Source: an uncultured Cytophagia bacterium | GTDB taxonomy: Bacteria; Zhuqueibacterota; Zhuqueibacteria; Thermofontimicrobiales; Thermofontimicrobiaceae | Reading direction: 5' to 3' | Length of the DNA: 64,000 nucleotides | Assembly (NCBI GenBank): GCA_964647995.1 | Contig: CAZYNP010000028.1 | Location: 1,151-65,150, forward strand | Part shown: in pieces, positions 4,219 through 62,659 of the stretch | Layout of the letters: each line of letters starts with the position of its first letter | Numbering within the stretch: position 1 is the first letter of the stretch | The notes under the pieces: model-generated | What the model saw: only the letters and a program-made list of their open reading frames with translations | Databases searched by the model: none | Told to the model about the DNA's origin: nothing | Translations under genes and position numbers: made by a program

Positions 4219-5595
4219 TTATTTCTTCAATTTTTCCAGCGCCCTTTTGGCATCTTCATAGCTGGAATCTAACTGCAGTGCTGCCTCATACGCTTGTTGC
4301 GCAGCCGCTTTATCACCCTTGAGCTCATAAAGTGCCCCCAGCCGAAAATGAGCGTTGGCCCAGGTGGGTTGATTCTCCCCTGGCTCATGCTGCAAATACA
4401 ACTTCAGGCATTCGATCCCTCGTTCCAGATTGGCCCCCGAAAAAACCGCTGTGCGACCGATCTGATACAAAGCAGGATAATAGTCGGGGTGATTTTTGAT
4501 GATCATTTCAAAAATTTTGAAGGCATTATCGTATTGCTTCTTTTGCTGATACAAAAAGCCAACCTGCATCTCGATTTCGATGGTTTGCTCATGATTATTT
4601 TTGATGAGTTCCTGGACCAGGTGCTCTACCTTTTGAGTGTCGCCTTTTTCCAGCAAAATATTGGCATAGGATGAGGCAAAATAACGATCAATTTTGCCAA
4701 CATTCCCGTTAATGACGCGATCGGCCAGCTCGACCCCTCGATCATAATTACTTTTTGAACTGAGGCAATACATGAGGTAAGACCTGACGAGCATTTGGCT
4801 CTCAGGAAATTTCGATATTAATTGGTCGAAAACTTTACTTGCTTTTTCCGACTGCTCTTTATTCACCAGGCTGCGATAAAAATCTCCAAAAACCACATCC
4901 AGAAATTGGCTAGTGGGAAATTCAGTGGCAAACTCCAGCACGGCTTCGGGACCTGAATAAGTGGCGGCAAAGCGAGCCAATTCATAAGCGGAAACCTCGG
5001 CGCTATCTTTGCCAAACGGCAACATGACTTGCCTGGCTCGTTCTGGCTGGCTCAATATTTTTTGAGCGAACTCCGCCATCTTTTCAAAGGCAAAATTCGA
5101 GCGGTACTTTTCCACCAGCCGAGCCAGAACTGCCACCTCTGCAGGATCTTTTTCATAAGCCTGCATTAAATTCAAGAAGTTGTTTTCACCGTGGTAGGTT
5201 TTTTCCAATGTATCCTTGAATTTTTCGGGAGGTGGGTCATAGCCTAGCACCCGATCGATTTCCTGGCCGTCGGCGGTAACGACCATCACCGTCGATGTGG
5301 CTCGAACCGAGAATTTTTTATAAATCTCATCTCCGTCAGGTTGACCCCGATGGGCGCGAAATAGCAGAAAATTTTGGGTGAGATAGGGATGAAATTGTTC
5401 ATCCTGGAAGAATTGCTTGTCCAGCAATCGGCAGCCACCTCAGCCAGCCGAGTAAAAATCGATCAGAATCTTCTTGCCGTCCTTCGCCGCCGTCGCCATC
5501 GCCTCATCGAATGATCCTTTGAACCAGAGTTCATTCTGAGCAAATAACGGTAGGGCGAAGACCAGAAGGATCAACAGCATCAACGGTTTTTTCAT
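4219..5595 (-). CDS. Candidate selenoprotein with a signal peptide, a thioredoxin-fold (Thioredoxin_7/DUF255-like) domain and C-terminal TPR repeats. An in-frame UGA at 5440..5442 is read as selenocysteine (FYSAG-U-GGC-R).
   Basis: The track ORF (4219..5427) starts at TTG. Manual translation upstream in the same frame gives MKKPLMLLILLVFALPLFAQNELWFKGSFDEAMATAAKDGKKILIDFYSAG-TGA-GGCRLLDKQFF... from the ATG at 5593-5595. The TGA falls at the first Cys of the expected CxxC motif. A 6-7 bp hairpin with a GGACA apical loop lies 11 nt downstream of the UGA (CGAUUGCU GGACA AGCAAUU), consistent with a bacterial SECIS element. Confidence 0.55.
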
Positions 5596-8895: not shown

Positions 8896-9519
8896 TTATT
8901 CGGGATAGGCCAGAGCCTGCTCGATTGCTCGAACCACTTCTTCGTCTTCCGGAGCGGTACGAGATCCAAATCGAGCCACGATCTTTCCCTGACGATCAAT
9001 CAAGAATTTATTGAAATTCCAGCTAATATCACCGGCAAATTCAGGATTGGTCTCCTTCTCTGTCAGGTATTTATATAGCGGCGCAATGTCTTTTCCTTTC
9101 ACCGAAATTTTGGAAAACATGGGAAAGGTCACCTGGTAATTGACCGAACAAAACTGTTTGATTTCTTCGTTGCTGCCGGGCTCCTGTCCCAGGAAATTAT
9201 TGGCAGGAAAGCCCAAAATCACCAAGCCTTTATCCTTGTATTGCTGGTAGATTTTCTGCAATCCCGCGTACTGTGGGGTATAGCCACAACGACTGGCCAC
9301 ATTCACAATCATGATTACTTTGCCTTTATACTGCTCCAGCTTCTGATCTTTGCCATCAATATCTTTCATTGTAAAGTCATAGATGGATTTCATTTTTTCG
9401 CCTCCTGTCTGTTCATTTGATCGCACGGCTCGATTAGCAATGCCGAGCCCGAGCAATCCCATCAACATCATCGTCATAATTTTCTTCATGGTAAATTCTC
9501 TCCTGAATTCATTAGTCAT
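8896..9519 (-). CDS. gpx: Glutathione peroxidase (Cys form) with a signal peptide.
   Basis: The VNVASRCGYT active-site motif and the WNFNKFLIDRQGKIVARF C-terminal motif are present. Confidence 0.8.
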   Translation of the reverse strand: MTNEFRREFTMKKIMTMMLMGLLGLGIANRAVRSNEQTGGEKMKSIYDFTMKDIDGKDQKLEQYKGKVIMIVNVASRCGYTPQYAGLQKIYQQYKDKGLVILGFPANNFLGQEPGSNEEIKQFCSVNYQVTFPMFSKISVKGKDIAPLYKYLTEKETNPEFAGDISWNFNKFLIDRQGKIVARFGSRTAPEDEEVVRAIEQALAYPE

Positions 9520-48747: not shown

Positions 48748-49713
48748 CTAAAAGCGTTTTGTATAACCATGACAATACGGATGATGCCCCGTCTTCTGAT
48801 AGTAGGATTGGTGGTACCGCTCCGCCTCCCAGAACGTATCCGCCTTCGTTAATTGCGTAGCCACTTTGTAACCTTTGTCCTTCAAAATTTGGATTAGCTT
48901 CTCCGCAATCTGCTTTTGCTCCTCATTCACATAAAAAATCTCGGAGCGATATTGCTGGCCAATATCAGGCCCCTGGCGATTGACCTGAGTGGGATCGTGA
49001 ATTTCAAAAAACAGTCGAGCTAAAGTTTCAAAATCGGTCTGGGACGGATCGAACACGACCTCCATGGTCTCGGCATGGCCTGTATTGCCTTCGCAGACAT
49101 CGTCGTAGGTGGGATTTTTCAGATGTCCACCCATATAGCCCACTCGGGTGGAGAGCACGCCTTTTTCTTTTTGAAAGAAATATTCCACGCCCCAAAAACA
49201 GCCGCCGGCAAAATAGGCTTTTTCAGTTTTCACTTCTGCTTTTGTTTTTTCATCAGCAGGAATGAAATTCATCGAGATCGAATTCACGCAATGTCGGGTA
49301 TTCTTGGCGGTAAATCCTTCTCCCAAAAATACATGCCCGAGGTGACCGCCGCAGTTGGCGCAGACGATTTCGGTGCGAATGCCATCGGCATCGGGAATTC
49401 GCTTTACCGCTCCAGGGATTTCATCATCGAAGCTGGGCCAGCCACAGCCCGAATCGAATTTGTCTTCGGAGCGATACAGCGGCGCCCCACATTGCTTGCA
49501 CGTGTAAGTCCCCTTTTCTTTGTGATTGTAATACTTGCCCGTAAACGGCCTCTCCGTCCCTTTGTGAAGAATCACCCGTTGTTCCTCTGGAGTCAATTGA
49601 TTGTACTTCATACCACTATCCTGCTTTGTTTTATCCTGTGAAATTAAACTGATCGCAGCTATTGATACGACCAAAATCATCATAGAAATGATAATTGTTT
49701 TCATTTTAATCAC
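48748..49713 (-). CDS. msrAB: Bifunctional peptide-methionine sulfoxide reductase (MsrB-MsrA fusion) with a signal peptide.
   Basis: The MsrB zinc site is CKQCGAPLY...CANCGGHLGHVF and its catalytic region is GCGWPSF. The MsrA motif is GGCFWG. Confidence 0.8.
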   Translation of the reverse strand: MIKMKTIIISMMILVVSIAAISLISQDKTKQDSGMKYNQLTPEEQRVILHKGTERPFTGKYYNHKEKGTYTCKQCGAPLYRSEDKFDSGCGWPSFDDEIPGAVKRIPDADGIRTEIVCANCGGHLGHVFLGEGFTAKNTRHCVNSISMNFIPADEKTKAEVKTEKAYFAGGCFWGVEYFFQKEKGVLSTRVGYMGGHLKNPTYDDVCEGNTGHAETMEVVFDPSQTDFETLARLFFEIHDPTQVNRQGPDIGQQYRSEIFYVNEEQKQIAEKLIQILKDKGYKVATQLTKADTFWEAERYHQSYYQKTGHHPYCHGYTKRF

Positions 49714-49998
49714 CTGCCATTAATAACCTTTCAAAGGTTTAAAGCCTTCGACAGGGTTAGTTCAATATTTAATTGCATTGTCGAAAGAAATTCTCCAACG
49801 GATTGAAACAAGCCAACTGATTAGATAACTATTTATAAATCCGTTGGGTTGTTTCTATCCGTTAGTAAAAAGCTTGGCTTGCTTTCAGGATCTCAAAAAA
49901 ACTCCTTATGCAATTTCCATTATCCCAATCCCTTTTTTGCCATTTTTCACATCCTCAAACTATTTCTATCTGCCGTTTCACGATTCACCTAATCCACA

Positions 49999-50850
49999 TC
50001 ACGATTTTATAAACGTCCCATTCCGATATTCCTGGAACGCCACCATCAATTCCTCATCCGTATTCATCACAATCGGCCCGCGCCAGGCGATGGGCTCGTT
50101 CAATGGCTTGCCCGAAACCCATAGAAACCGAACAGGATCCGCCTGGGTCTGAATCTTGACCCTATCCCCCTGGGTGAAAACAATTAGATGATCGGCCTGA
50201 ACGGAGTCAGCGCTATCGGGATCGAAATAACCGCTGCCCTGAAACACAAAAGCAAACGTCTTGTAATCGGGTTTGGTAGCGATTTCTAATTCCGCATGTG
50301 GAGCGATGGCGACATCAAAATATTCGGTATCCACCACCAAATCCTGAACAGGGCCGTTCGTGCCATTCATTTGTCCTGCAATTATTTTAATCTTCACATT
50401 GGGATTGGGCGAAAACTCGGGGATGGTCTCGCTCCTGACATCCCGATACCTGGGTGCCATCATTTTATGCGACTTCGGCAGATTGACCCAGAGCTGAAAT
50501 CCCCGCATCTCTCCCTCAAATCGTTTTGGCATTTCCTGATGAATGATGCCGCTGCCCGCTGTCATCCATTGCACATCGCCCGAGTAGATCACCCCCCTGT
50601 TGCCCAGGCTATCGCCATGTTCCACCTCGCCCGCCAGCATGTAGGTCACCGTCTCGATCCCCCGATGCGGATGCCAGGGAAAGCCAGCGAGATAGTCCTC
50701 GGGATCATCCGATCCGAAATGATCGAGCAAAAGAAACGGATCGAGCAACGGCTTTTCATAATAGCCGAACACCCGCTTCAATTTCACCCCTGCTCCTTCG
50801 AGGGTCGGCTTGCTTTTTAGAATCTGATTAATTTTTCGGAATCCATTCAT
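49999..50850 (-). CDS. Pirin family cupin protein.
   Basis: It has the HPHRGIETVTYMLAG...H motif. Confidence 0.75.
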   Translation of the reverse strand: MNGFRKINQILKSKPTLEGAGVKLKRVFGYYEKPLLDPFLLLDHFGSDDPEDYLAGFPWHPHRGIETVTYMLAGEVEHGDSLGNRGVIYSGDVQWMTAGSGIIHQEMPKRFEGEMRGFQLWVNLPKSHKMMAPRYRDVRSETIPEFSPNPNVKIKIIAGQMNGTNGPVQDLVVDTEYFDVAIAPHAELEIATKPDYKTFAFVFQGSGYFDPDSADSVQADHLIVFTQGDRVKIQTQADPVRFLWVSGKPLNEPIAWRGPIVMNTDEELMVAFQEYRNGTFIKS

Positions 50851-50933
50851 GGTCTATTTCCTTTGACATTTTTAATTTCAGTTTAGGCGTCACCTGATCG
50901 AAAGAGTCGTAGCCGATAACAAGATGAAAACGG

Positions 50934-51488
50934 TTATTTAAACACCACTCTGGCCGTCGCATCTTCTTTGTAAAAAATCTCATGTCCATCCACCCATTGG
51001 CCGTTCTGAAGATATTGTGATTTACTATGCATTCTGCCATCGGGCAGCAACTCCCCAATGGCCTTCACTTCGGTGATGCCATTCGGATTGCCCGTCACCA
51101 GTTCGTGGCTGATCAATTTTTCCCCATCCACGGTAAATGTGCCGGTCGTGTAGAATCCTGCTGTGGTAAAATAAAAAAACAACAGTTGCTGTTTGTCCCT
51201 GTCCCAATAAATAATGGTCTCGCCACCATAGCTTCCATCATTGACCGAATGCATTATCCTGATGGCCTGACCATTCAGAATCAGTTCCCAGCGAGAGACA
51301 TCTACCATCGGTTTTTCGGCGGTGGCGTTGGCAAATTCACCCCGCCAGGTCTTGCCCACGAACGGCAGAAAAGGCTTCAGATGCTCATTGACCACAGGTT
51401 GATCGCTGGCAGGCTGGGCTTGTTGACCGTAAGCCGAAGCCGATATGAGCATTCCCAGCATCAGACTAACAAAAAAATGCTTATTCAT
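50934..51488 (-). CDS. Secreted hypothetical protein (184 aa).
   Basis: It has a signal peptide (MNKHFFVSLMLGMLISASAYG) and is beta-rich. I recognise no motifs. Confidence 0.45.
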   Translation of the reverse strand: MNKHFFVSLMLGMLISASAYGQQAQPASDQPVVNEHLKPFLPFVGKTWRGEFANATAEKPMVDVSRWELILNGQAIRIMHSVNDGSYGGETIIYWDRDKQQLLFFYFTTAGFYTTGTFTVDGEKLISHELVTGNPNGITEVKAIGELLPDGRMHSKSQYLQNGQWVDGHEIFYKEDATARVVFK

Positions 51489-52007
51489 CCATTCCTCCCT
51501 CAGTTAATATTGCTTAACGCCACCTGGCATAAGTTAAACGATCCAGGTTCGCACTTGCTCCCACCGAACTGAACTCCCATCGAAAAATTTTGTTTTAAAG
51601 TCCCCATACCTTGCCAGGTATTTCATCACAACTCAATTTCTCACCCACATATTTTCACCAGGTGCCATGCCATATCCCCCAAACTCCTTGCGCTATCACT
51701 TCCGCTTGCCTCGCTCGAAGTCGGAGTTTTGGAGCAATGGAGTGCTGCGGATTTCTAACTGTCATTCATTACTCCATCACTCCAATGCTTCATCACTACA
51801 TCATTTCAAAACCATGCATCTAAATTTTCAAATCAAAATGACAGGGTCGACTCCAGATAGCAACAGGCAGCCGACCCTGTCTGTGCGGAGGGTAGTTCTT
51901 CTATTTGCAACTCGATTTCGAGCCAGCACTATCCGAGTAAATCAGCTTTGCCCGCTCATTTCAGGAATTATGCCAATTGCTCCAATTTCTCGATTGGCCA
52001 ATTAGCG

Positions 52008-52138
52008 AAATTCGTTTCGTTAGTGCAATTAGCGGTCTCATCGAGTCTACCACCGATGTCACCACTAACCCGAGTCACACACTCCGCCTCATCAGAAAAT
52101 TAGCGGAATTCGTTTAATTGGCGTCATTAGCGGTCCAC
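52008..52138. repeat. Two copies (A1 at 52008-52049, A2 at 52096-52138) of an AATTAGCG-rich short repeat family; orientation is inverted relative to the B copies at 55184-55470.
   Basis: A1 is ccaattagcgaaattcgtttcgttagtgcaattagcggtctc. A2 is aaaattagcggaattcgtttaattggcgtcattagcggtccac. Both share AATTAGCGRAATTCG and ATTAGCGGTC with the B elements. Confidence 0.7.
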
Positions 52139-52159: not shown

Positions 52160-52768
52160 TCACTTCATCGCCGCATGAAATTTCTCCGCCACGGCCTTCC
52201 AATTGACCACATTCCACCAGGCCTCGATGTAATCGGGACGTCGGTTCTGGTATTTCAAATAGTAGGCGTGTTCCCAGACATCGATGCCCAGGATCGGCGT
52301 CATCCCCTCGCTGATCGGGCTATCCTGATTGGCCGTGCTGCTCACCATCAAGCGACCAGCTTTGACGCTCAGCCAGGCCCAGCCGCTGCCAAAGCGGGTG
52401 GCTGCGGCATTGGAAAATTTTTCTCTAAACGCCTTAAAATCGCCAAACTCTTTTTTGATCGCCGCTGCTAGATCGCCTGTCGGTTCACCGCCTGCGTTTT
52501 TCGCCATAATTTCCCAGAATAATATATGGTTCACATGGCCGCCGCCGTTGTTCCGAACCGCCGTGCGTATGGCCTCGGGCACAGCGTTCAAATCTGCCAA
52601 TAATTTTTCCACGCTATCAGCTTGAAAATTGGCCGATTCCAGCGCTTTATTCAAATTGGTGGTATAAGCCACATGATGCTTGTCATGATGAATCTCCATG
52701 GTGCGCGCATCGATATAGGGTTCTAAGGCATCATAAGCATAATGTAAATTCGGTGTCTTGAAATTCAT
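52160..52768 (-). CDS. sod: Fe/Mn superoxide dismutase.
   Basis: [25 protein letters not shown], the metal-ligand motifs and the C-terminal DVWEHAYY are present. Confidence 0.85.
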
Positions 52769-53007
52769 AATTTGCTCCTTCTATGTTTTGATTCATGTTT
52801 TCATCTTAAAAATTTTTTCCAACGGATTGATGAAGCCAACGGATAATTTTATTAATATCATTTTCTCAGATTTAGCATCAACATCCACATCCAATTAGCC
52901 GATCCACCTGTCATCGTCCCCCTTTTGGAGGATGCCAGTGGGATGTTATTCATCTTGAAACAGGGGAATTAACATCTATGAGTGCAATTTAACTCAATAT
53001 CATTGAA

Positions 53008-53032
53008 ATACCAGACCAAATTGGTCTTATTT
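53008..53032. promoter_or_regulatory. Operator-like palindrome ATACCAGACCAAATTGGTCTTATTT (core AGACCAA-A-TTGGTCT) in the sod upstream region; a near-copy lies at 55911..55935.
   Basis: It is a 15-bp perfect inverted repeat, and 21 of 25 positions match the site directly upstream of the Rrf2 regulator gene. Confidence 0.45.
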
Positions 53033-53064
53033 GTGTAGAAAAAAATTTCTCAATCACGATTAAA

Positions 53065-53159
53065 AACGATTACTAAACCTGAAAAGTTTAGTAATCGTTG
53101 TCCCCTGTTATTTGGAGGTACAATTACCAAACTTGAAAAGTTTGGTAATTGTACCTCCC
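53065..53159. other. Two adjacent perfect hairpins (14-bp and 19-bp stems) with near-identical 7-nt loops (cTGAAAA / tTGAAAA), lying 3' of the RNA ligase gene.
   Basis: The first is aacgattactaaac ctgaaaa gtttagtaatcgtt. The second is ggaggtacaattaccaaac ttgaaaa gtttggtaattgtacctcc. On the minus strand the first is followed by a T-rich run, so it may act as a terminator. Confidence 0.6.
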
Positions 53160-53208
53160 CACTTGTTTCTCCCCAATTACCCAGTTACCCAATTACCTAA
53201 TCACCCAA

Positions 53209-54219
53209 CTACTCTTCATATTTCAACAAAAACTCAGGATTCACGACCTTGAAGCTCAGCCTTCCCAATTCAGGATCTTGCGCCTCGACAACGGGTCGGA
53301 TGACAATGCCTTCCCTGGGAATATCGGGATTGAGCACGCTTTTGTCATTGGACAGCGCCACCAGACCATCCACATCGTGCGTACCCAGGATGTAATCGTC
53401 GCGAATAATGGGCACGGTCTCGAATCCTGCCTCTCTGGCCAGGGCCACAAATTCCTCATAATTCAAATAGACAAAGCGATCGATGTCGAAGATGCTATAG
53501 ATCAGCACCTGGTGGCCAGGCAGTTTATATTTATTGCCCTGAATTTTCGGTCCCAGTATCTCCCCCTGAAAGGCGATGTTGCGATGGAGCTTTCGCAGTT
53601 TGCCCTCGATGTCGTGCAAGCGAGCGACCATCCAGTGGATATTGGTCTCGGTCTCCAGCAACTCCAGATTGCGAGAGCAAACGCCAAACTCACTATCCCG
53701 AATGTAATAGGTGGCGCTGGTGCCATCCACCTTTTCGGTAATATAGCAACGCTGGCCCACGTTTTCAGGTCGGGTGAGCACATCGGGCACGGATTGGATG
53801 CGCATCTCGTCGGTTTTGGGGATGAACCCAGGGAAACTGCCTTTTACCTGGCCGCTGGTCATCACGGCTGGCGGCGGCTCATATTTTTTAATTCCCAGCA
53901 GCTCGGTGACATCCATTCCCTCGCTGATCGGAACGTTTTCCAGCTCTTTGATCTGATGAATAGGAAAAGCAATGCCCTGCGAAATCTGTCCCCGCAGCTT
54001 CACGGTCTTGATCCTGAACTTCCGTGGCCGCAAAAATTCATATTCGGGCTTTTCGGGCAACATGCTGTCGATCTCACAATAGACGCAATAGTCACCCACT
54101 TTGAAATCTCCCTTCTTGACCACCAGTTGCCAGCCCAGCACGGTGGCCTTTTCAATCTTGTCCGCCTCGGGAATTGGCTCCAGACTTTTGATCCGCTGGA
54201 TCGTAGCTAATTTTCTCAT
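53209..54219 (-). CDS. ATP-dependent RNA ligase of the Rnl5 family (DraRnl/NgrRnl-type; TIGR02306-like).
   Basis: It has the N-terminal OB-like domain MRKLATIQRI...ADKIEKATVLGWQLVVKKGDFKVGDYCVYCEIDS and the nucleotidyltransferase motif I ITEKVDGTS with Lys at about residue 163. At 336 aa both the size and the lysine position match DraRnl (342 aa, Lys165) as I recall it. Confidence 0.7.
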   Translation of the reverse strand: MRKLATIQRIKSLEPIPEADKIEKATVLGWQLVVKKGDFKVGDYCVYCEIDSMLPEKPEYEFLRPRKFRIKTVKLRGQISQGIAFPIHQIKELENVPISEGMDVTELLGIKKYEPPPAVMTSGQVKGSFPGFIPKTDEMRIQSVPDVLTRPENVGQRCYITEKVDGTSATYYIRDSEFGVCSRNLELLETETNIHWMVARLHDIEGKLRKLHRNIAFQGEILGPKIQGNKYKLPGHQVLIYSIFDIDRFVYLNYEEFVALAREAGFETVPIIRDDYILGTHDVDGLVALSNDKSVLNPDIPREGIVIRPVVEAQDPELGRLSFKVVNPEFLLKYEE

Positions 54220-54254
54220 TTTTAGACTCCTTTTTCGTCTTGAGTGCCTTTTTT

Positions 54255-54598
54255 AAATATTTTCTCTCCCAGAAACGATATCCCACCGAAATGAATTTTT
54301 AGAATTTTTATTATCAGGGAAGCGGCTTCCTATTACCCTCTATTACCGAATTGCCCAATTATTTTAAAATATTTTTTCCCACAGAAATGAAATCCCACCG
54401 AAATGGATTTTTAGAATTTTTATTATCAGGGAAGTGGCTTCCTATTACCCTATTACCGAATTGCCCAATTATCTTAAAGTATTTTTTCCCACAGAAATTA
54501 AATCCCACCGAAATGAATTTTTAGAATTTTTATTATCAGGGAACGGGCTTCCTATTAACTTATTACCCTATTACCCAATTACCTAATTGCCCAATCCC
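54255..54598. repeat. Tandem array of three units of about 114 bp, each containing TTTTCCCACAGAAATGAAATCCCACCGAAATG, TTTTTAGAATTTTTATTATCAGGGAAGYGGCTTCC and CCTATTACCGAATTGCCCAATTA.
   Basis: The units are at 54255-54370, 54371-54480 and 54481-54598 and are more than 90% identical. The array lies between the trx-like stop (54599) and the RNA ligase start (54219). Confidence 0.8.
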
Positions 54599-55228
54599 CT
54601 AACGACCCGATTTCCACTTGATATTACACCCAATACTTGGTTTTTGATCCTGGCTCACGGGCTTGCCAGCGATGATGGCCTCCAGCGCCGCCCGAAGGTC
54701 TTCGCCCGTTACAGGAATATCATTACTGGGCCGAGAGTCATCCATCTGGCCCCGATAGACCAATTTCAAATCTTTATCGAAAACATAAAAATCAGGCGTA
54801 CAGGCGGCCAGATAGGCACGGGCGACCTCCTGGGATTCGTCGTAAAGATAAGGGAACGGATAACCGAACTGCTTCGCCACTTTTTTCATCTCTGCTGGAG
54901 AATCTTCGGGGTAGCCCTGCACATCGTTGGAGCTAATGGCAATGAATGAAATTCCTTTCGACAGGTAATCCTTTGCCAATTGCACCAACCCTGTTCGAAC
55001 GTGCTTAACAAACGGGCAATGATTGCAAATAAACATCACTACTGTCGCCGTATCCGATTTTAGCTCTTGCAACGATAGTACTTTTCCAGAAATGGTATCG
55101 GGCAATTTGAAATCAGGCGCCGATGTTCCCAACGGCATCATGTTCGATGGCGTGACTGCCATTTGTTCCTCCGCTTTATTTGTGACCGCTAATTTCGCGA
55201 ACGAGACGAATTTCGCTAATTGGCGCAA
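54599..55228 (-). CDS. Thioredoxin-fold protein (AhpC/TSA-redoxin/TlpA-like) with a CxxC motif (CNHCPF).
   Basis: APDFKL...VVMFICNHCPFV is a redoxin-type motif. The start may be the internal Met (MAVTPSNMMPLG). Confidence 0.6.
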   Translation of the reverse strand: MRQLAKFVSFAKLAVTNKAEEQMAVTPSNMMPLGTSAPDFKLPDTISGKVLSLQELKSDTATVVMFICNHCPFVKHVRTGLVQLAKDYLSKGISFIAISSNDVQGYPEDSPAEMKKVAKQFGYPFPYLYDESQEVARAYLAACTPDFYVFDKDLKLVYRGQMDDSRPSNDIPVTGEDLRAALEAIIAGKPVSQDQKPSIGCNIKWKSGR

Positions 55229-55470
55229 TTAGATTAATTCGCGAAATTAGCGGTCAACTGTATTCGTCCAAAGCAATTGCTGTCGACAGAGCAAAAGATT
55301 TCTGACCGCTAATTTCGCTAATTGATAAGAATTTCGCCAATTGATGATTGGCCTGCATTTCGATTCGTAAATCTATGAAGCCATGCATTTTTGTTTGTAC
55401 CCCAATCACTTCAAACTCAAAAATTAATAATTCGCGCAATTAGATTAATTCGCGAAATTAGCGGTCAACC
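55184..55470. repeat. MITE-like palindromic elements with 18-bp terminal inverted repeats GACCGCTAATTTCGCGAA / TTCGCGAAATTAGCGGTC. B1 (55184-55258) is a 75-bp complete element. B2 (55304-55351) and B3 (55429-55470) may be the two ends of a 167-bp element.
   Basis: The terminal inverted repeats are perfect. The right half of B1 and B3 are identical over 37 nt. The family is shared with the A copies at 52008-52138. Confidence 0.7.
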
Positions 55471-55476
55471 CAGAAT

Positions 55477-55902
55477 TCAATAGCTTGTGGAAAATTTCTT
55501 CTCAAAATCTTTGAGCGTAATTTCATCCAATAAATTGACCAATTTCGATTGAATGTCCTCCATGGATTTTCGGATCAGGCAATTGCGCTCCCGCTCGCAG
55601 ACCGTTTCCTCGTCAGCATCCAGGCAATCGGCGATAGCAATTGGGCCGTCAATAGCCGTGATCACCGAGGAAATATTGATGCGATCGATGGGCTGGGCTA
55701 AGTAATAGCCCCCTTTTACACCTTGCACAGAGATCACCATTCCACTTTTCACCAGGCTCTGCAGAATTTTTCCCATCAGCTCCAGCGAAATGTTATATTT
55801 ATCCGATAGCTCCCGTGCAGTTGTCAACTCATCAGGCGATTTCTTTGCCATGTGCAGGAGGGCGATCAAAGCGTATTCCACTTTTTTGCTGAATTTCATC
55901 AT
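55477..55902 (-). CDS. Rrf2-family transcriptional regulator (IscR/NsrR-like) with three candidate Fe-S ligand cysteines.
   Basis: The N-terminal HTH is KKVEYALIALLHMAK...LTTARELS and a GG(Y)YLA-like region is present. Cysteines lie in ...ADCLDADEETVCERERNCLI. Confidence 0.7.
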   Translation of the reverse strand: MMKFSKKVEYALIALLHMAKKSPDELTTARELSDKYNISLELMGKILQSLVKSGMVISVQGVKGGYYLAQPIDRINISSVITAIDGPIAIADCLDADEETVCERERNCLIRKSMEDIQSKLVNLLDEITLKDFEKKFSTSY

Positions 55903-55910
55903 CAGAAGTT

Positions 55911-55935
55911 ATACCAGACTGAATTGGTCTTACTT
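55911..55935. promoter_or_regulatory. Operator-like motif ATACCAGACTGAATTGGTCTTACTT, 9-33 bp upstream of the Rrf2 start codon; paired with 53008..53032.
   Basis: It is similar to the sod-upstream palindrome, and its position is consistent with an autoregulatory operator. Confidence 0.4.
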
Positions 55936-55952
55936 TAGCTCAAAATAAAAAT

Positions 55953-56200
55953 CATTTTTTTCCAATGATTTCACCCACTGAAACGCCTGGCGAAAAAATT
56001 TGTTCCAAAATAGGACTATGGAGGTCGGATTTAAAATTGGAATTCTATTTTTAAATTTCGTTAGCGAAAAGGAATGATTTTTCTCCCACAGAAATGGAAT
56101 CCCACAGAAAAGAAAACTTAGGTTTTATTGATAGATGCTCTGTTTTCTGATTTTAAAAAAAGACTTTCTCTCCCACCGAAATGGAATCCCACAAAAATAG
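55953..56200. repeat. Three dispersed copies of the TTTYTCCCACMGAAATGGAATCCCAC motif (also present in the 54255-54598 array) in the Rrf2/sigma divergent intergenic region.
   Basis: Copies lie at 55953-55985, 56075-56110 and 56163-56200. Confidence 0.6.
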
Positions 56201-56388: not shown

Positions 56389-56979
56389 ATGGAGCTGGAG
56401 AACATGAAGGCGACGGAAGCTTTGGTCGAACGCTATCGCCAGGGCGATCATGCTGCTTTTGACCAGTTAATACAAGAGCATGGCAGGCCGCTATACAATT
56501 TCATACTTTCTATGACCAAAAGCAAGTCGCTGGCCGACGATGTCTATCAAGAAACCTGGAGTCGGGTCCTTCACCACCTCGATGACTATCGAGAGCAGGG
56601 GCAATTTAAATGCTGGCTGTTCCAGATCGCCAACCATCAATGCCTGAATCACCTGCGATTGCTCAGACGAGTCTTTGTGCCATTGACCGAGATAGTCAAT
56701 GTCGAGAGCGAAGCGAACCTAATCATCAGCGGTTCCAATCCTGATCCCGGGCCTGATGAAAAATTGGAGCGCAACGAACGCCTCAAATGGGTTTGTGCGT
56801 GCGCTCAACAATTGCCCATCAAGCAGCGTCAGGTTTTTCTCTTGAAAATGAACAGCGATCTGACATTCAAAGAGATTTCAATGATTTTGAACCGACCGTT
56901 GAATACTGTGCTCACGCAGATGCGAACGGCACTTTTGACCATGAGGAAAAAACTAAAGGCCATTTATGATGAAGTGTAA
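56389..56979 (+). CDS. ECF-type RNA polymerase sigma-70 family factor.
   Basis: Region 2 (DVYQETWSRV...FKCWLFQIANHQCLNHLR) and a region 4 HTH (FKEISMILNRPLNTV) are present. Confidence 0.75.
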   Translation: MELENMKATEALVERYRQGDHAAFDQLIQEHGRPLYNFILSMTKSKSLADDVYQETWSRVLHHLDDYREQGQFKCWLFQIANHQCLNHLRLLRRVFVPLTEIVNVESEANLIISGSNPDPGPDEKLERNERLKWVCACAQQLPIKQRQVFLLKMNSDLTFKEISMILNRPLNTVLTQMRTALLTMRKKLKAIYDEV

Positions 56980-57409
56980 ATTTGACAGGTCAAAATTAAT
57001 TTTATACCTATTCAATGAAGTTACCTCAGCCGAAAGAGAGGAAATTTCCGCTCACATCGAATCCTGCGAGGTGTGCGCCTTAGAACTTGAACAGCTAAGT
57101 TCCGTTCGGAGTCGCTGGCCCAACCAGCCCATCGCCGATCCGCCCTCTCTTCATATTGTCAAAACGCCAGCGCGGCAGAAACTGGTTCGCCAGCCTCGCC
57201 GAGCCAGGAGAGTTCGGCGGCTGATACCTGCTCTGGGCTTTGCCATTGTGCTGGCTATCATTGCATTTTCACTGATCTGGCGGTTGGCGATCAATAAGCG
57301 ATCCAATTATTGGAGCATCGAAAATAGCTGGGAAGGACCCTATCGGTATCAGTTCGAAAGAATAGATCGTACCATTGAGATGATCAAGAATGATGAATTT
57401 TTTAACTAA
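56966..57409 (+). CDS. Anti-sigma factor (zf-HC2 type) with one TM helix.
   Basis: It has the HxxxCxxC motif AHIESCEVCALEL and a TM segment (LIPALGFAIVLAIIAFSLIW). Its start overlaps the end of the sigma gene. Confidence 0.6.
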   Translation: MMKCKFDRSKLILYLFNEVTSAEREEISAHIESCEVCALELEQLSSVRSRWPNQPIADPPSLHIVKTPARQKLVRQPRRARRVRRLIPALGFAIVLAIIAFSLIWRLAINKRSNYWSIENSWEGPYRYQFERIDRTIEMIKNDEFFN

Positions 57410-57459
57410 TGACGGCAGGATAAGATAGCATCTTGTCCCGCAATTAATGGAGGTGTAAC

Positions 57460-58635
57460 ATGAACAATCTACAAAAAACATTATTGAGCTTTGTTTTTGT
57501 ATTGCTATTCTGTTTTAAAACGCTGGCGCAAGAGATGGGCGCTATCGAAGGAACTGTAACATCCACAGATGGAAAGCCGATTCCTGGCGCAACAGTGATT
57601 TTTAAAAATACCACCAAAAAGTTGTCGACAGATTTTGATGGGAAATTCATAGCCGAAAAAATGTATCCAGCCAAATATACTGCTTTCGTCTTCAAATACG
57701 GCTACAAAACCTTCTTAAGAGATGATGTGAAAGTGGGAGCGGGACTGACGACTGCGCTTGAAATCACTCTCGAACGTGACCCGAACAACCAGGGCTGCGG
57801 CACAATTGCAGGGCGAATTATTGATAAAAATGATAAACCGATTGCTGATGCCAAAATAATCATCGCCGAATCTTTTGTCCCTAAATCAGATGATATTGTT
57901 ACCATCGAAGATTTTATTCTCAAGGGGGCGCAGATCGAAGCCAGCTCTGACCGAGATGGTAATTTCATCATTAAAAATGTTCCTCCAGGCAGGTTCACTG
58001 CCTTTGCGATGAAAGATGGCTACCAATCATTTATGTATTTTTCGATCTATGTTGAAACTGGGCAGACAAAAACAATCGAAGCGAAATTATCTGAGCAAAA
58101 ATATTCATTCATATACGGCAAAGTCAAATCAACCGATGGAGAGGCAATTCCAGGCGCCAATATCACTTTAACAGGGACTCGGCTGGGCGCTGCTTCAGAT
58201 CCACTTGGCAATTTTATCATTAAGGAAGTTCCACCTGGCAAATATATTTTAAAGGTTGCGATGTTGGGATTTAACCCCTATCAACAATCAATTGCTGTCG
58301 AGAAAAACAAGCACCAGAAATTAGCAGTTACAATCGAACCTGATATTTCATTTAAATTGGAGAAGAAATCAGATCTGCAAGCTTACGAAGATCGGTTAGA
58401 AGAATTGCGCCAGGCGTATTTCCTTGCTGAATCAGAAACGGATCGGGATGAGACTAGAAAACAAATCCGAGCACTCCTCGAAACCATGTTCGATTTAAAA
58501 GAAAAAGAATACGCCAAGAATATCGAAGCGAAGAAGCGCAACATTCAATCGCTGGAACAGTTACAAAAATATCGTGCCGAAAATAAAGACGATATAATAG
58601 AGCGCCGACTAAAAGAATTGCTGACGGTTTATTAA
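57460..58635 (+). CDS. Secreted protein with three carboxypeptidase-regulatory-like (CarboxypepD_reg) beta-sandwich domains and a C-terminal coiled coil.
   Basis: It has a signal peptide and a GGAGG ribosome-binding site. The repeated pattern is G.V.S.DG.PIPGA.V.....R....D.G.F.I..VPPG.Y. Confidence 0.6.
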   Translation: MNNLQKTLLSFVFVLLFCFKTLAQEMGAIEGTVTSTDGKPIPGATVIFKNTTKKLSTDFDGKFIAEKMYPAKYTAFVFKYGYKTFLRDDVKVGAGLTTALEITLERDPNNQGCGTIAGRIIDKNDKPIADAKIIIAESFVPKSDDIVTIEDFILKGAQIEASSDRDGNFIIKNVPPGRFTAFAMKDGYQSFMYFSIYVETGQTKTIEAKLSEQKYSFIYGKVKSTDGEAIPGANITLTGTRLGAASDPLGNFIIKEVPPGKYILKVAMLGFNPYQQSIAVEKNKHQKLAVTIEPDISFKLEKKSDLQAYEDRLEELRQAYFLAESETDRDETRKQIRALLETMFDLKEKEYAKNIEAKKRNIQSLEQLQKYRAENKDDIIERRLKELLTVY

Positions 58636-58720
58636 TTTCCACAAACCAGGGAGTTAAGGCGTAAGCCTTACATATTAACTCCTTAGTCTAATGACATTTT
58701 TTTGGTGGAGGATTTTGAAA

Positions 58721-59902
58721 ATGCAATCAATAAAAATATACTCCTATATTTTGATCTCCTCACTTTTTTTCTTTACGTATTTGCATGGGCAACCATCAGG
58801 TTGGCAAGGGAAAACAGAAATCAAAAAGAATATTCACTATATTTACAATCCAAAACAAGGTTTATGGGACGATGATCCTTCAAAACAAATTACGTTAGAA
58901 AAACGATTCAGCATCGGGTATTACGAAGGACCAGAGGATTATCTTTTTGCATTAGTTAGAGAAGTCATCGTTGATAGCAATGGCAGGATAATCGTGCTTG
59001 ATAAGGATTGCGTGCGAATTTTTGATCAATCGGGTAAGCATGTCCTGACTTTCGGCAGCGAAGGCGAAGGGCCTGGCGAATTTAAAATTCCTCGAGGAAT
59101 GGCATTGGATGATAATGGCAATATTTATATCTATGATTCCATTTTGCAGCGAGTGTCAGTTTTTGATTCGGTTGGCAAATTTATCAGAAGCATTCGGTTG
59201 AATGACAGAATGTTTGGCAAGATTGGATTAAAGTCAAATCATGATATCGTTCTATCGAGAATGATTCTGTTCGATCCTCGAATGCCCGATCAGTTTAAGG
59301 ATCATAAGCTCATTCGATTATACAATCAAAAAGGGAAAAAGCTTGCCTCGTTTTTCGAAGCTGAATTAATTGTCAACAATGGACCTTTTGGTCGGGAACA
59401 ATTTTCCTGGTGCTATTTCCAATTATTGAAAGGGGATACTTTGATCGGTGGCTATAATTACCCTTACAAAATTCATCTTTTTGATCCGAACAATAAGCTC
59501 TTCAAAGTCATTCAGCGGGAGTCACCCATTTTTTCGAAACCGAGTCTGCTATCATCTCAAATGAAAATGATGGATGGCAATATCTTTGAAACAAAAGCCC
59601 TGGCGTTACGGGCATCGATCTGGGATATTTTTGTTTTGCCAGATGGAAAATTTTTCGTTTATATTAAAGACAATGGTCCCGATTATAAAGAGCACTTCTC
59701 AAAAAATGCACTCGGCTCCCAGGAGGGAACCATGGTGCTTGATCTATACGATAAAAACGGCTATTTTTTGAAAAGCTATCCTTATGTGAACGAGAAATAT
59801 GGCAAGATAATATTTGTCGATGCCGAGGGATATTTGTACACGGCGATTGGTCCCAGTGAGCTTATTCCTGGCGTGACGAAATGGCGGATATCTTTTGAAT
59901 AA
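58721..59902 (+). CDS. Secreted beta-propeller protein (NHL / 6-bladed TolB-like repeats).
   Basis: It has a signal peptide (MQSIKIYSYILISSLFFFTYLHG) and repeated D.NG.IYV.D segments (DSNGRIIVLD, DDNGNIYIYD). A GGAGG ribosome-binding site lies 10 nt upstream of the ATG at 58721. Confidence 0.5.
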   Translation: MQSIKIYSYILISSLFFFTYLHGQPSGWQGKTEIKKNIHYIYNPKQGLWDDDPSKQITLEKRFSIGYYEGPEDYLFALVREVIVDSNGRIIVLDKDCVRIFDQSGKHVLTFGSEGEGPGEFKIPRGMALDDNGNIYIYDSILQRVSVFDSVGKFIRSIRLNDRMFGKIGLKSNHDIVLSRMILFDPRMPDQFKDHKLIRLYNQKGKKLASFFEAELIVNNGPFGREQFSWCYFQLLKGDTLIGGYNYPYKIHLFDPNNKLFKVIQRESPIFSKPSLLSSQMKMMDGNIFETKALALRASIWDIFVLPDGKFFVYIKDNGPDYKEHFSKNALGSQEGTMVLDLYDKNGYFLKSYPYVNEKYGKIIFVDAEGYLYTAIGPSELIPGVTKWRISFE

Positions 59903-59910
59903 TTAGAACA

Positions 59911-60043
59911 ACCTTGATTTTTGACCATCCCCGCTCCCATTTTACCTTGATTTTTGACCATAACTGCTCTCATTTTACCTTTCTTTTTAACCATAATTAT
60001 ACAAAAATATCCTTGATTTTTAGCCATAATCTTTGTATTATTT
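59911..60043. repeat. Four tandem copies of a roughly 33-bp unit (ACCTTGATTTTTGACCATNNCNGCTCNCATTTT), degenerating towards 3', upstream of the DUF4143 ATPase gene.
   Basis: The units are at 59911-59943, 59944-59976, 59977-60010 and 60011-60043. The first two are about 85% identical. Confidence 0.7.
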
Positions 60044-60076
60044 ATCCAGTTGGCTCATTAAATCAAAGGTGCGGGT

Positions 60077-61417
60077 TTGAAAAGAATCGTTTTTGAAGCA
60101 TTAAAACGCTGGAAGGATAGCCCCCAGCGCAAGCCGATTTTGCTTCGCGGAGCTCGACAGGTCGGGAAGACTTACATTGTGCGGGAACTGGGGAAATTGT
60201 TCCCCGATTTCGTGGAGATCAATTTTGAGTTGTTGCCCGACGCCAGCAAAATTTTTGAGCGTGATCTACTGCCCGAGCGGATTATTCGAGATCTATCGCT
60301 TTTTATTGGCCGAAAAATTGAACCTGGACAGTCACTATTATTTTTGGATGAAATCCAGGCAGCGCCGAAAGCCATCCAGGCCCTGCGCTATTTCTATGAA
60401 CTGCTCCCGCAGCAGCATATTATCAGCGCTGGCTCACTGCTTGATTTTGAGCTGGAAAAAATCGGAATGCCTGTCGGCAGGGTAACTTCGATTTATATGC
60501 ACCCCATGTCCTTTTTGGAGTTTCTGGCCGCTAAAAATGAGCCTTTGCTGATCGAAATGATCCTGGAACATGATGTCCCGTCAAAGGTGTCTGAAGTCGT
60601 TCATCATAAATTGCTCCATCTGTTAGGCGAATATTTGGCCATTGGTGGGATGCCAGAAGCAATGCAGAGCTGGCTCGATAGCGAGGATTTGAACAAATGC
60701 GGGGCGATCCATCGGACCATTATCGATTCATTTCGCCAGGATTTCAATAAATATGCGACCAGGTTTCAGATCAAATACCTTGATGTGCTGTTTGATGCCA
60801 TTCCCGCCTTGTTAGGACAAAAATTCAAGTTCAGCAATATCCCTGGTGAATATCGAAAGCGGGATCTGCTGCCTGCCCTGGACCTATTAATCAAAGCAGG
60901 TATAGCTCATAAAATCCTCCATAGCTCAGGCACAGGTATTCCGCTGGGGGCGACTGTCAATGGCGACAAATTTAAGCTGCTATTTGTTGACATCGCACTG
61001 GCACAGACGATTTTGGGACTGGACACCACCTCCTGGCTGCTCGATCCCGAACTCAACTTGATCAACAAAGGCGCTATTACCGAGGCATTTGTAGGACAGG
61101 AGTTACTGGCTTATTCGCTGTTTGATGTGAAAGGCCAACTGTATTATTGGCATCGAGAAGCCAGAGCCAGCAACGCCGAGATCGATTATCTAATTCAAAA
61201 ACAGAACCTGGTGATTCCCATTGAAGTGAAAAGCGGCGCTCCTGGCAAATTAAAGAGCCTGAAAATTTTTCTTGACGAGCACCCAAATTCAACTCAAGGC
61301 ATCCGCTTTTCCAGCCAAAATTACGATGCAACCAATGGCATTCAGAATCTGCCGCTCTATGCGGTGGCCAGAATCATGGAAGCGCAGCAATCCCATTTCC
61401 TGTCGCTGATTCATTAG
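60077..61417 (+). CDS. AAA+ ATPase with a C-terminal DUF4143 domain (ATP-binding protein, AAA_14-like).
   Basis: It has Walker A GARQVGKTY, Walker B LLFLDEIQ and the C-terminal DYLIQKQNLVIPIEVKSG. The ORF can only start at the TTG at 60077 because an in-frame stop lies at 60059-60061. Confidence 0.7.
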   Translation: MKRIVFEALKRWKDSPQRKPILLRGARQVGKTYIVRELGKLFPDFVEINFELLPDASKIFERDLLPERIIRDLSLFIGRKIEPGQSLLFLDEIQAAPKAIQALRYFYELLPQQHIISAGSLLDFELEKIGMPVGRVTSIYMHPMSFLEFLAAKNEPLLIEMILEHDVPSKVSEVVHHKLLHLLGEYLAIGGMPEAMQSWLDSEDLNKCGAIHRTIIDSFRQDFNKYATRFQIKYLDVLFDAIPALLGQKFKFSNIPGEYRKRDLLPALDLLIKAGIAHKILHSSGTGIPLGATVNGDKFKLLFVDIALAQTILGLDTTSWLLDPELNLINKGAITEAFVGQELLAYSLFDVKGQLYYWHREARASNAEIDYLIQKQNLVIPIEVKSGAPGKLKSLKIFLDEHPNSTQGIRFSSQNYDATNGIQNLPLYAVARIMEAQQSHFLSLIH

Positions 61418-61453: not shown

Positions 61454-62659
61454 TTAAGTAAGTTGAGTGAGCGGGGCTGACTGCATGGTGGGGATTGTTT
61501 CGCCATTGAGCGTCAGGTAGCTCCGCAAGAGATGAACCGTCAGGCAGGAGTGAACAGGCAGGATGGTCAGCAGATCTCCAATGTGCACCTGATTAAAAAA
61601 TTGCGGATCGGTTTTGATGATCCCATGCTCCTGGGATAGCGCCGAGACATAGGCATGGGAGATGACGGCACCCCAGCCTCGTTCCTCGAAGGGCGCCACG
61701 TAGCCGAAAATTTTATTGCTCTGGTTATCAACAATGAATTCTTTCGAGAGATGAACCGCTCCCCCGTAAATCACGATCTCGTTCCGCTCCCGATGTTTTG
61801 CCACCACAGGACAGGCCACGGCCACAGCAATATCTTGCTCCGCACAGGAGCCAATGGTCAATTGCATGACATCATAAAAAACAAAATTGCCCGGCCGAAT
61901 CTCATCCACACCGCTGAAATCATCCCTAACGCTGCAGCAAGGTGTATCGCCAATAGAAAGTTGAGTCCCCGAGAACCCCTTTTCGATCAGCTTCTGCTGG
62001 AGTTGCTGCAGTTTTTCAACCATGTCGTGATAAATTTTCCTGACCTCAGCCGCGGAACGGGCTTGATAGGCATGTCCTGCATGAGTTAATAATCCTGTGA
62101 ACGCCATCTTTTTTGATCGGCCAATCAGGCGAGCCAGGGCGATCACTTCATCGAATTGATCCCAAGAAACTCCCGTGCGATGATAGCCGACATCGATCTT
62201 CAGCCATACCCCAACCTGATATTGGAGATTTCGATCCAAAAAAGCAGCCGTCTGCTCCGATTCTACCAGTAGACTTAGATGAATCGACGCAGCGAGCTTA
62301 TTGATCGCTTCGATCTCCAGAATATTCACAGGAAAGGCAATGGTAATATCATCCCAGCCATGCTGGGCAAAATACTGCGCCATCTCCACCGATGACACGG
62401 TGATGGAAGCAACGCCGCACTCCCGAAACCATTCTCCGATCCGGGCGGATTGATGGGTTTTGAAATGGGGGCGAAAACGCACCCGGCTGTTCGCTGCCTT
62501 AGCTGCCATGCGGTGGATATTGGCGAGGGCTCGTTTTGCATGCAAAATAAGGGTTGGCCGCGAAATCGGCAGGTTATCAACGATACTATTTTTTGGATCA
62601 GAAATATCGGAAGCCGCGCTCATTATGTTCTCTCCCAAGGGACTCAATTGGTCTACCAT
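61454..62659 (-). CDS. PLP-dependent enzyme of the alanine-racemase-N / D-serine dehydratase-like (DSD1 / D-threonine aldolase) family.
   Basis: The PLP-lysine context is RVRFRPHFKTHQSARIG and a C-terminal D-Ser-dehydratase-like domain is present. Confidence 0.6.
   Translation of the reverse strand: MVDQLSPLGENIMSAASDISDPKNSIVDNLPISRPTLILHAKRALANIHRMAAKAANSRVRFRPHFKTHQSARIGEWFRECGVASITVSSVEMAQYFAQHGWDDITIAFPVNILEIEAINKLAASIHLSLLVESEQTAAFLDRNLQYQVGVWLKIDVGYHRTGVSWDQFDEVIALARLIGRSKKMAFTGLLTHAGHAYQARSAAEVRKIYHDMVEKLQQLQQKLIEKGFSGTQLSIGDTPCCSVRDDFSGVDEIRPGNFVFYDVMQLTIGSCAEQDIAVAVACPVVAKHRERNEIVIYGGAVHLSKEFIVDNQSNKIFGYVAPFEERGWGAVISHAYVSALSQEHGIIKTDPQFFNQVHIGDLLTILPVHSCLTVHLLRSYLTLNGETIPTMQSAPLTQLT

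Follow-up and report, generated by a model that had tools for sequence, protein, structure and literature searches.

In the 64,000-nt stretch of contig CAZYNP010000028.1 analysed here (hereafter the window, taken from an uncultured bacterium), three copies of a 25-27 bp dyad lie upstream of two minus-strand genes: rrf2, encoding an Rrf2-family regulator, and sod, encoding a Mn/Fe superoxide dismutase. We read these sites as very likely operators of the adjacent Rrf2, which would be an iron-sulfur (Fe-S) sensor similar to RisR of Myxococcus xanthus, its cluster-loaded (holo) dimer repressing the rrf2 operon and sod, and loss of the cluster derepressing them. Going by the sequences and their conservation, we would give this reading a probability of about 75%. 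A RisR-type Fe-S repressor has so far been known from one studied organism, and the same operator is now found at about 160 loci in several phyla. The arrangement would be an ordinary kind of switch on unusual genes, in which the regulon has shifted from Fe-S assembly to superoxide defence, with an Rnl5-type RNA ligase as a passenger.

Three copies of one dyad and their relatives

The initial annotation had singled out two 25-mers, at 53008-53032 and 55911-55935, as a shared operator-like palindrome. Both are present at these coordinates, and the 15-bp core AGACCAA-A-TTGGTCT at 53013-53027 is indeed a palindrome with 7-bp arms; the likeness between the two 25-mers is real as well, although 22 of 25 positions are identical and not 21, as had been counted. 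A 22-nt pattern, ATACCAGACNNAATTGGTCTTA, matches these two sites only in the 64 kb and is absent from 100 shuffles, and chance is no explanation for the match between the two 25-mers. The bare 15-mer, when up to three mismatches are allowed, has five matches in the window against 2.1 expected, which is not above chance. A 15-mer match at 62640-62654, at the start of a D-serine-dehydratase-like gene, was dismissed, scoring below 8 bits by the matrix described next.

Both 25-mers belong to a 25-27 bp dyad, AAATAnGAC-N7-GTCnkATTT, for which a 27-nt family matrix was built from 53 distinct sites. Over these 53 sites, there is little or no variation in the GAC, the GTC and the outer A/T positions, in contrast to the 7-nt spacer. 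Scanning the window with this matrix returns exactly three matches above 8 bits (27.3, 26.1 and 24.6; Table 1), with a maximum of 12.8 bits in 20 shuffled windows. The match of 26.1 bits, which had been overlooked, is the distal of two sites upstream of rrf2 and did not belong to the training set. It has the canonical symmetric flanks, and the proximal rrf2 site and the sod site share an asymmetric right flank (GTCTGGTAT).

We followed the dyad in two samplings: a metagenome set of 80 loci with Rrf2 homologs that are 94-37% identical (436 kb in total), and an independent set of 80 loci from named genomes, 79 of which were scored for sites (842 kb). Together, these about 160 loci, referred to by L numbers where they have to be told apart, cover KSB1, Calditrichota, Verrucomicrobiota, Lentisphaeria, the Chlorobi group, Ignavibacteria and Bacteroidota; the closest match among GTDB representatives is 75% identical. 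Judging by how its homologs are named, the bacterium belongs to candidate division KSB1 / Zhuqueibacterota. The first three orthologous loci carry the same sequence directly before the rrf2 start and a near-identical copy before sod. Furthermore, about 60 of the 80 metagenome loci have a GAC-N7-GTC no more than 70 nt from the start codon, mostly 19-27 nt upstream. Of the 98 matches of at least 15 bits in this set, 93 lie upstream of rrf2 at a distance of up to 150 nt, and four of the remaining five precede sod (L001, L002, L005 and L009).

Among the named genomes, the site is found upstream of rrf2 in 71 of 79 loci, with 101 sites near the gene and nine elsewhere. One of these nine follows the RNA ligase gene (L088), two lie at the rrf2/redoxin junction of L095 and the redoxin/suf junction of L091, and six, about 5.4 kb upstream, stand at the head of a suf (Fe-S assembly) operon that has rrf2 as its last gene, an order found in four loci of Lentisphaeria (L147, L148, L152 and L166). 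These four loci are a natural control: since rrf2 comes last in the operon and the sites are at its head, the motif tracks the promoter and not the rrf2 start codon. As such, the dyad tracks the promoters that serve this Rrf2 gene family. Over both sets, about 190 of 207 strong matches stand just before the Rrf2 gene, and most of the other 14 are found at promoters of genes linked to it, namely sod, redoxin or the first gene of a suf operon. The earlier proposal of a cognate, autoregulatory operator thereby gains support, as the dyad accompanies Rrf2 homologs throughout both sets, just before rrf2 or at the head of its operon.

Candidate promoters around the operators

In the subclade of the window, four blocks upstream of rrf2 are conserved, namely TAGAAT together with the distal operator, GGAAC-N16-CGTT, an A/T tract, and the proximal operator. 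The second 25-mer spans -9 to -33 relative to the rrf2 ATG (55902), as had been noted, and the position of this proximal operator is conserved in KSB1-clade loci, while the distal site lies at -113 to -118 in all nine KSB1-clade loci examined. Between the two operators, the GGAAC-N16-CGTT element looks like a promoter of an extracytoplasmic function (ECF) sigma factor, and may function as one. In 10 of 10 loci, the subclade has GGAAC and CGT unchanged at a distance of 16 nt, around a spacer that is only 40-70% conserved, and fixed elements at a fixed spacing around a variable spacer are the signature of such a promoter; moreover, GGAAC-N16-CGT has a single match in the 64-kb window.

Several other readings of this region were considered and rejected. 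A sigma-54 reading of TGGAAC...CGC has the wrong spacing, and the AT-rich 'hairpin' with T-run that precedes the proximal operator, considered as an attenuator or terminator downstream of the ECF-type promoter, is unstable (z -0.3) and was reinterpreted as the A/T tract. The divergent pair of an ECF sigma and a zf-HC2 gene at 56389-57409 was dropped as the source of the cognate sigma: it lies within an insertion missing from relatives, its sigma is 26-29% identical to the ECF sigmas beside rrf2-sod in L086, and its own upstream region has no GGAAC-N16-CGT. This insertion of about 5.5 kb (56389-61417) holds the ECF sigma, the zf-HC2 anti-sigma and three more plus-strand genes, and separates rrf2 from the D-serine-dehydratase-like gene (61454-62659), its neighbour in relatives.

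An extended -10-like element overlaps the right flank of the proximal operator, and the order TATAAn, 4-5 nt, ATG, without a Shine-Dalgarno sequence, recurs in 8 of 12 aligned loci. Because rrf2 has no ribosome-binding site, whereas sod, redoxin and ligase each carry one of AGGAG type, a leaderless rrf2 mRNA starting from this extended -10 promoter is a reasonable guess. Upstream of the distal operator, the candidate -10 hexamer TAGAAT occupies the place of clear TTGAC(T/A)-17-TAT(A/T)TT promoters in L085, L087, L008 and L170-L173; the -35 element paired with it in the window is poor. In the suf-linked relatives L170-L173, the site lies between a textbook TTGACA-17-TATATT promoter, 16 nt ahead of the GAC, and the ATG, which means that the operator would cover the transcript start. 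The distal sites of L085 and L087 are placed likewise relative to the promoter.

The first 25-mer had been assigned to the sod promoter region. It does lie upstream of sod, at a distance of about 240-245 nt from the ATG (52768) that is long for such a role, and relatives are arranged alike. The sod operator directly follows two strong hairpins, likely a terminator, that would end the RNA ligase transcript; L009 and L088 have a homologous hairpin. These hairpins likely insulate sod from the ligase transcript, so that sod would need an operator of its own; in L008, sod follows the ligase gene after 53 bp and has none. Upstream of the sod operator is a T-run (AAATTTTTTT, 53039-53048), which is the first part of a module consisting of the T-run, 8-10 nt, the operator and TGGTATnnn. 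This module recurs in the window, the four metagenome loci with a site before sod, and L088, with constant internal spacing and a distance to the start codon of 66-268 nt. The sites before sod in the window and in these four loci support the earlier suggestion that sod is a target of Rrf2.

In L088, a relative with 75% identity, the module after the RNA ligase gene (4923-5011) is followed by a signal-peptide protein of more than 390 residues instead of sod, which is a possible further member of the regulon. In the sod leader of the window, ATCCGTTGG also occurs twice as a direct repeat at 52819-52844, about 50-75 nt before the start codon, with the copies 17 bp from each other; copies are likewise found before sod in L002 (about 9470-9500), and a second regulator may bind these repeats. 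An Rfam search of the gaps, among them the long leader of sod, returned only two sub-threshold eukaryotic chance matches.

Table 1. Operators, candidate promoter elements and genes of the rrf2-sod region, in window coordinates
Feature	Position	Strand	Details
Distal rrf2 operator	56007-56033	.	AAAATAGGACTATGGAGGTCGGATTTA (+ strand); 26.1 bits; centre 97 bp upstream of the proximal centre
Proximal rrf2 operator	55910-55936	.	AAAGTAAGACCAATTCAGTCTGGTATA (rrf2 sense); 24.6 bits; ends 8 nt before ATG
sod operator	53007-53033	.	CAAATAAGACCAATTTGGTCTGGTATT (sod sense); core GAC-N7-GTC at 53014-53026; 27.3 bits
Candidate -10 hexamer TAGAAT	56042-56047	-	Precedes the GAC of the distal operator by 15 nt
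Candidate ECF-sigma-type promoter GGAAC-N16-(G)CGTT	55982-56006	-	Abuts the distal operator
Extended -10-like element, rrf2	55908-55916	-	TGGTATAAC; overlaps right flank of the proximal operator; 5 nt before ATG
Extended -10-like element, sod (putative)	53005-53013	-	TGGTATTTC; overlaps right flank of the sod operator
Two hairpins after RNA ligase, the second followed by a U-run; likely terminator	53062-53158	-	-53.5 kcal/mol, z -9.5
Rrf2-family regulator (rrf2), RisR/IS6-like	55477-55902	-	141 aa; C93-X8-C102-X5-C108; Pfam Rrf2
AhpC/TSA-redoxin thiol oxidoreductase	54599-55162	-	CNHC motif; Pfam AhpC-TSA 1.7e-19
Rnl5/DraRnl-type ATP-dependent RNA ligase	53209-54219	-	TIGR02306 194.8 bits (cut-off 151.15)
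Mn/Fe superoxide dismutase (sod)	52160-52768	-	Pfam Sod_Fe_N, Sod_Fe_C
Conserved protein	50934-51488	-	184 aa; no Pfam match
Pirin	49999-50850	-	Pirin, Pirin_C
MsrB-MsrA fusion	48748-49713	-	SelR, PMSR

The regulator and its probable exchange of target genes

The window protein has the winged-helix domain of the Rrf2 family at residues 5-133 (PF02082, 4.2e-36) and scores 120.7 bits with TIGR00738 (cut-off 73.3). It stays below the NCBIfam cut-offs for IscR, SufR-Xantho, CymR, NsrR and RirA, which includes the IscR equivalog (TIGR02010, 90.2 vs 207.55 bits; PRK10857, 63.7 vs 275) and the Xanthomonas-type SUF regulator (TIGR02944, 86.3 vs 110.65 bits). A search of the PDB gave no close solved relative, the best being CymR (3e-12), with RsrR at 2e-9 and NsrR at 4e-6. 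Over 35 homologs, C93 and C102 are invariant and C108 is at least 90% conserved; E9, likewise invariant, corresponds in the alignment to the ligand Asp8 of Streptomyces NsrR (PMC5411485).

RisR (MXAN_1152) belongs to Rrf2 group IS6 and is encoded before sufBCDSUT in M. xanthus (Sourice et al. 2023, PMC9973013). C92, C102 and C108 are the probable ligands of its [4Fe-4S] cluster. The holo form represses isc and suf and gives footprints on TkGAC-N7-GTCCw within AT-rich DNA, and repression is lifted by oxidants or by a lack of iron (PMC9973013). The positions of the window sites are consistent with such a mechanism. The same study files the suf-linked Rrf2 of Caldithrix abyssi (EHO42795.1) as IS6 in its Table S3 (PMC9973013). 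Our homolog set includes a C. abyssi locus (L146), which is 43% identical, has the same gene order and carries two matrix sites, and through this link the window Rrf2 appears to be a RisR-like (IS6) Fe-S sensor. The likeness comprises a gene that heads the suf operon (on the side of the window at the level of the family only), cysteines at C93/C102/C108 as against C92/C102/C108, the first spacing thus differing by one residue, and a GAC-N7-GTC core in AT-rich DNA that overlaps promoter elements, with CCGAC-N7-GTCCT at the distal site of the window. The suggestion that this Rrf2 is Fe-S-responsive gains support from the three conserved cysteines and from a homolog set grouped with RisR. On the other hand, the targets of RisR reported so far are isc and suf only, whereas the lineage of the window has no suf beside the regulator and its operators would serve rrf2-redoxin(-RNA ligase) and sod. 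The sites of KSB1 also differ in having the asymmetric right flank, and in the two rrf2 operators, which stand on either side of an ECF-type promoter at a distance of 97 bp from each other.

How does this compare with better-known Fe-S regulators? Type-1 sites of IscR in E. coli and Pseudomonas aeruginosa follow the consensus ATASYYGACTRWWWYAGTCRRSTAT, and the Pseudomonas protein, of which the holo form alone binds, has dual sites at its own Fe-S operon and single sites elsewhere, as at tpx (PMC6599224); superoxide destroys the IscR cluster (PMC12594620). The window dyad shares with type-1 sites the GAC-N7-GTC spacing and the length of 25 bp, and 9 of the 10 positions of AGTCRRSTAT are matched by its right half, AGTCTGGTAT. 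Further points in common are autoregulation, two sites at the own operon as against one at other targets, antioxidant targets and, as predicted for the window, a signal that consists in superoxide-sensitive loss of the cluster. The outer flanks differ, however, being AAATA in the window and not ATAsyy, and no type-2 motif was seen. Moreover, the ligands of IscR are C92, C98, C104 and H107 (PMC6599224), and its CX5CX5C spacing is CX8CX5C in the window protein, which thus does not reproduce the IscR ligand pattern. Gly44 stands where IscR has the specificity residue Glu43, and, set against the E. coli IscR sequence, the His107 ligand corresponds to Arg111. With NsrR and RsrR, in which the partner subunit supplies a carboxylate ligand, the window Rrf2 shares three cysteines and the invariant acidic residue at position 9; sequence similarity is weak, and operators and target genes differ. 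RisR itself has been reported to be nearer to NsrR than to IscR.

In more distant homologs, sufB, sufC, sufD, sufS, sufU, DUF59/SufT and a small Rieske gene lie downstream of rrf2, as is the case in about 55 of the 80 named loci. The Zhuqueibacterota locus L085 (58% identity) has the order D-serine-dehydratase-like gene, rrf2, redoxin, sufT-C-B-D, Rieske, sufS-U, unk187 and pirin; the window keeps these flanking genes and has no suf gene in 64 kb, and L087 retains only a NifU remnant of suf. The shared flanking genes make the window rrf2 the positional ortholog of the suf-operon regulator. As such, the gene is predicted to descend from a suf-operon repressor of the Fibrobacteres-Chlorobi-Bacteroidetes/Planctomycetes-Verrucomicrobia-Chlamydiae (FCB/PVC) groups, the ancestral task of which was control of suf. 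In this KSB1 lineage, suf appears to have left the locus, with antioxidant and repair genes taking its place. The order rrf2-redoxin-(RNA ligase)-sod-unknown-pirin-msrBA recurs in nine or ten loci with at least 67% identity, and redoxin follows rrf2 in every KSB1-clade locus as well as in the Zhuqueibacterota locus.

The ligase is a member of the Rnl5/DraRnl type by its N-terminal OB module (PF21189, 2.2e-37) and its adenylyltransferase domain (PF09414, 2.2e-25), and lies between redoxin and sod in the window, L008, L009 and L012. In L007 and L088 it directly follows redoxin, with no sod next to it within the sequence covered. The best NCBIfam match of the sod product is SodA [Mn], below the cut-off. 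The initial annotation had also listed the RNA ligase and trx operon as a possible target. Within the window, neither the ligase gene nor the redoxin gene is preceded by a separate operator, so this part of the proposal would hold only by read-through from the rrf2 promoter, which is likely in relatives. There, the rrf2-redoxin and redoxin-ligase gaps measure 12-160 nt, as against 314 nt and 380 nt in the window; an operon is likely where the gaps are short, and read-through is uncertain in the window, where repeat insertions fill them.

Downstream of sod, the genes for the 184-residue protein, pirin and MsrB-MsrA (48748-51488) form a conserved oxidative-stress neighbourhood, and the same genes follow the suf operon or redoxin in L085 and L087. 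In the window, none of the operators belongs to this neighbourhood.

Predicted mechanism and alternatives

We propose that the cluster-loaded, winged-helix Rrf2 dimer binds the 25-27 bp dyad. On the distal copy it would sit just downstream of a sigma-70-type -10 and against the -35 of the ECF-type promoter; on the proximal copy it would overlap the extended -10, 5 nt before the rrf2 start codon; and on the third copy it would overlap the sod promoter module, which the two hairpins cut off from the upstream operon. In each of these positions the dimer would block RNA polymerase sterically. Superoxide, other oxidants or iron shortage would destroy the cluster or prevent its formation, upon which the protein would leave the DNA, and rrf2, sod, and probably the downstream redoxin and RNA ligase genes would be expressed.

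Some observations weigh against this mechanism. The sites of L086 are degenerate, and a 413-bp gap before sod in L012 has no site. The two flank classes could mean two different binding proteins, and not an overlapping -10 at two of the three sites. The sod operator is about 245 nt away from the start codon; there may be another promoter closer to the gene, and the site could have another mode of action. In addition, a separate suf-linked paralog is possible in genomes of the window's clade, and the connection with RisR is a chain through C. abyssi, not a direct alignment.

In one alternative, all or some of the sites would be bound by another Rrf2 paralog, such as a separate suf-linked RisR, with the adjacent Rrf2 having another specificity or binding a subset. 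We regard this as unlikely. The symmetric flanks of the distal site next to the GTCTGGTAT flanks of the proximal and sod sites would fit two proteins, and suf operons with their own 148-residue Rrf2 do occur in uncultured bacteria, with a SufB that is 84% identical to a Zhuqueibacterota SufB. However, L085 and L087 carry the TGGTAT-type flank on both the distal and the proximal site, meaning that the flank classes are not cleanly separated, and the conserved flanking genes that make the window rrf2 a positional ortholog of the suf-linked gene speak for the adjacent protein. No genome examined was shown to carry both paralogs; a search for SufB homologs found suf operons with their own 148-residue Rrf2 in other assemblies, and none in the assemblies carrying L001 or L002.

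So what would the regulator do at sod? It seems quite improbable to us that Rrf2 is an activator there, or acts at a distance with the true promoter nearer the gene. Apart from the 245 nt between site and ATG, this possibility draws on a candidate promoter, TTGATG-18-TATTAA preceded by TG, that lies beside the two ATCCGTTGG repeats at a distance of about 85 nt from the ATG, and E. coli IscR reportedly activates some of its targets, sodA included. Conversely, the spacing within the module is fixed while its distance to the start codon varies, which fits a promoter that travels with its operator, and RisR is known only as a repressor. Judged by the position of the site, repression would be the more natural outcome at sod.

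It is highly improbable that the sites are alike merely through a duplicated promoter module of A/T tract and extended -10, with no dedicated transcription factor involved. Their shared flank TGGTAT(A/T) does resemble TGnTATAAT, and a T-run lies upstream of both original sites, but the invariant GAC-N7-GTC dyad persists across phyla with flanks that are not -10-like, the distal site has no such flank, and the motif follows the Rrf2 family, with three matches in 64 kb. The idea of a dispersed repeat unrelated to promoters, which the initial annotation had named as fatal to its proposal, is effectively refuted, whether as a repetitive extragenic palindromic (REP)-like or miniature inverted-repeat transposable element (MITE)-like sequence or as a terminator hairpin: a simple scan called 53013-53027 terminator-like on the plus strand and the surroundings are rich in other repeats, but the three window copies lie outside the other intergenic repeat families, their position relative to rrf2 is deeply conserved, the RNA hairpin is weak (-6.8 kcal/mol, z -1.9), and no plus-strand gene ends there.

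Repression by the adjacent RisR-like Rrf2 would make this locus an example of a regulator that keeps its operator and sensor while swapping its targets, from suf to sod, redoxin and RNA ligase. The matrix and three defined sites are now available for a phylum without a cultured model. The physiological role of the Rnl5 ligase family has been described as uncharted (PMC5397189). Its position in the window, between redoxin and sod and downstream of Rrf2, is genomic-context evidence for nick-sealing ligases in the repair of oxidative damage. Knockout of the Deinococcus RNA ligase results in radiation sensitivity and human RLIG1 has a role in oxidative stress, both of which match this context. A bolder version, which we put forward tentatively and consider doubtful, is that a suf repressor has been rewired into a regulator of the response to oxidative damage that acts together with an ECF sigma, the promoter of which lies between the two rrf2 operators, and that its operon includes the nick-sealing Rnl5 ligase. 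If true, RNA repair would be a programmed branch of the bacterial superoxide and Fe-S stress response, and the Rnl5 family would have a testable function.

The intergenic gaps of the region contain repeats of other kinds. In the redoxin-ligase gap, 54253-54581 consists of three tandem copies of a 110-bp unit, and similar units are found upstream of rrf2 in L002. Each unit holds TCCCAC(A/C)GAAATG, a motif that is also found at 51559, 56084-56116 and 56171-56187. Palindromic elements based on GACCGCTAATTTCGC, with 20-bp stems and -38 kcal/mol, lie between rrf2 and redoxin (55184-55255 and 55304-55466) and downstream of sod (52023-52135); L001 and L002 have related elements in the same gap, and all of these may be REP- or MITE-like. 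Finally, short runs of octamers resembling CCCAATTA or GGTAATTG directly follow the stop codons of RNA ligase and redoxin (53172-53212 and 54560-54600), and recur at the same place in L008, L009, L012 and L088.

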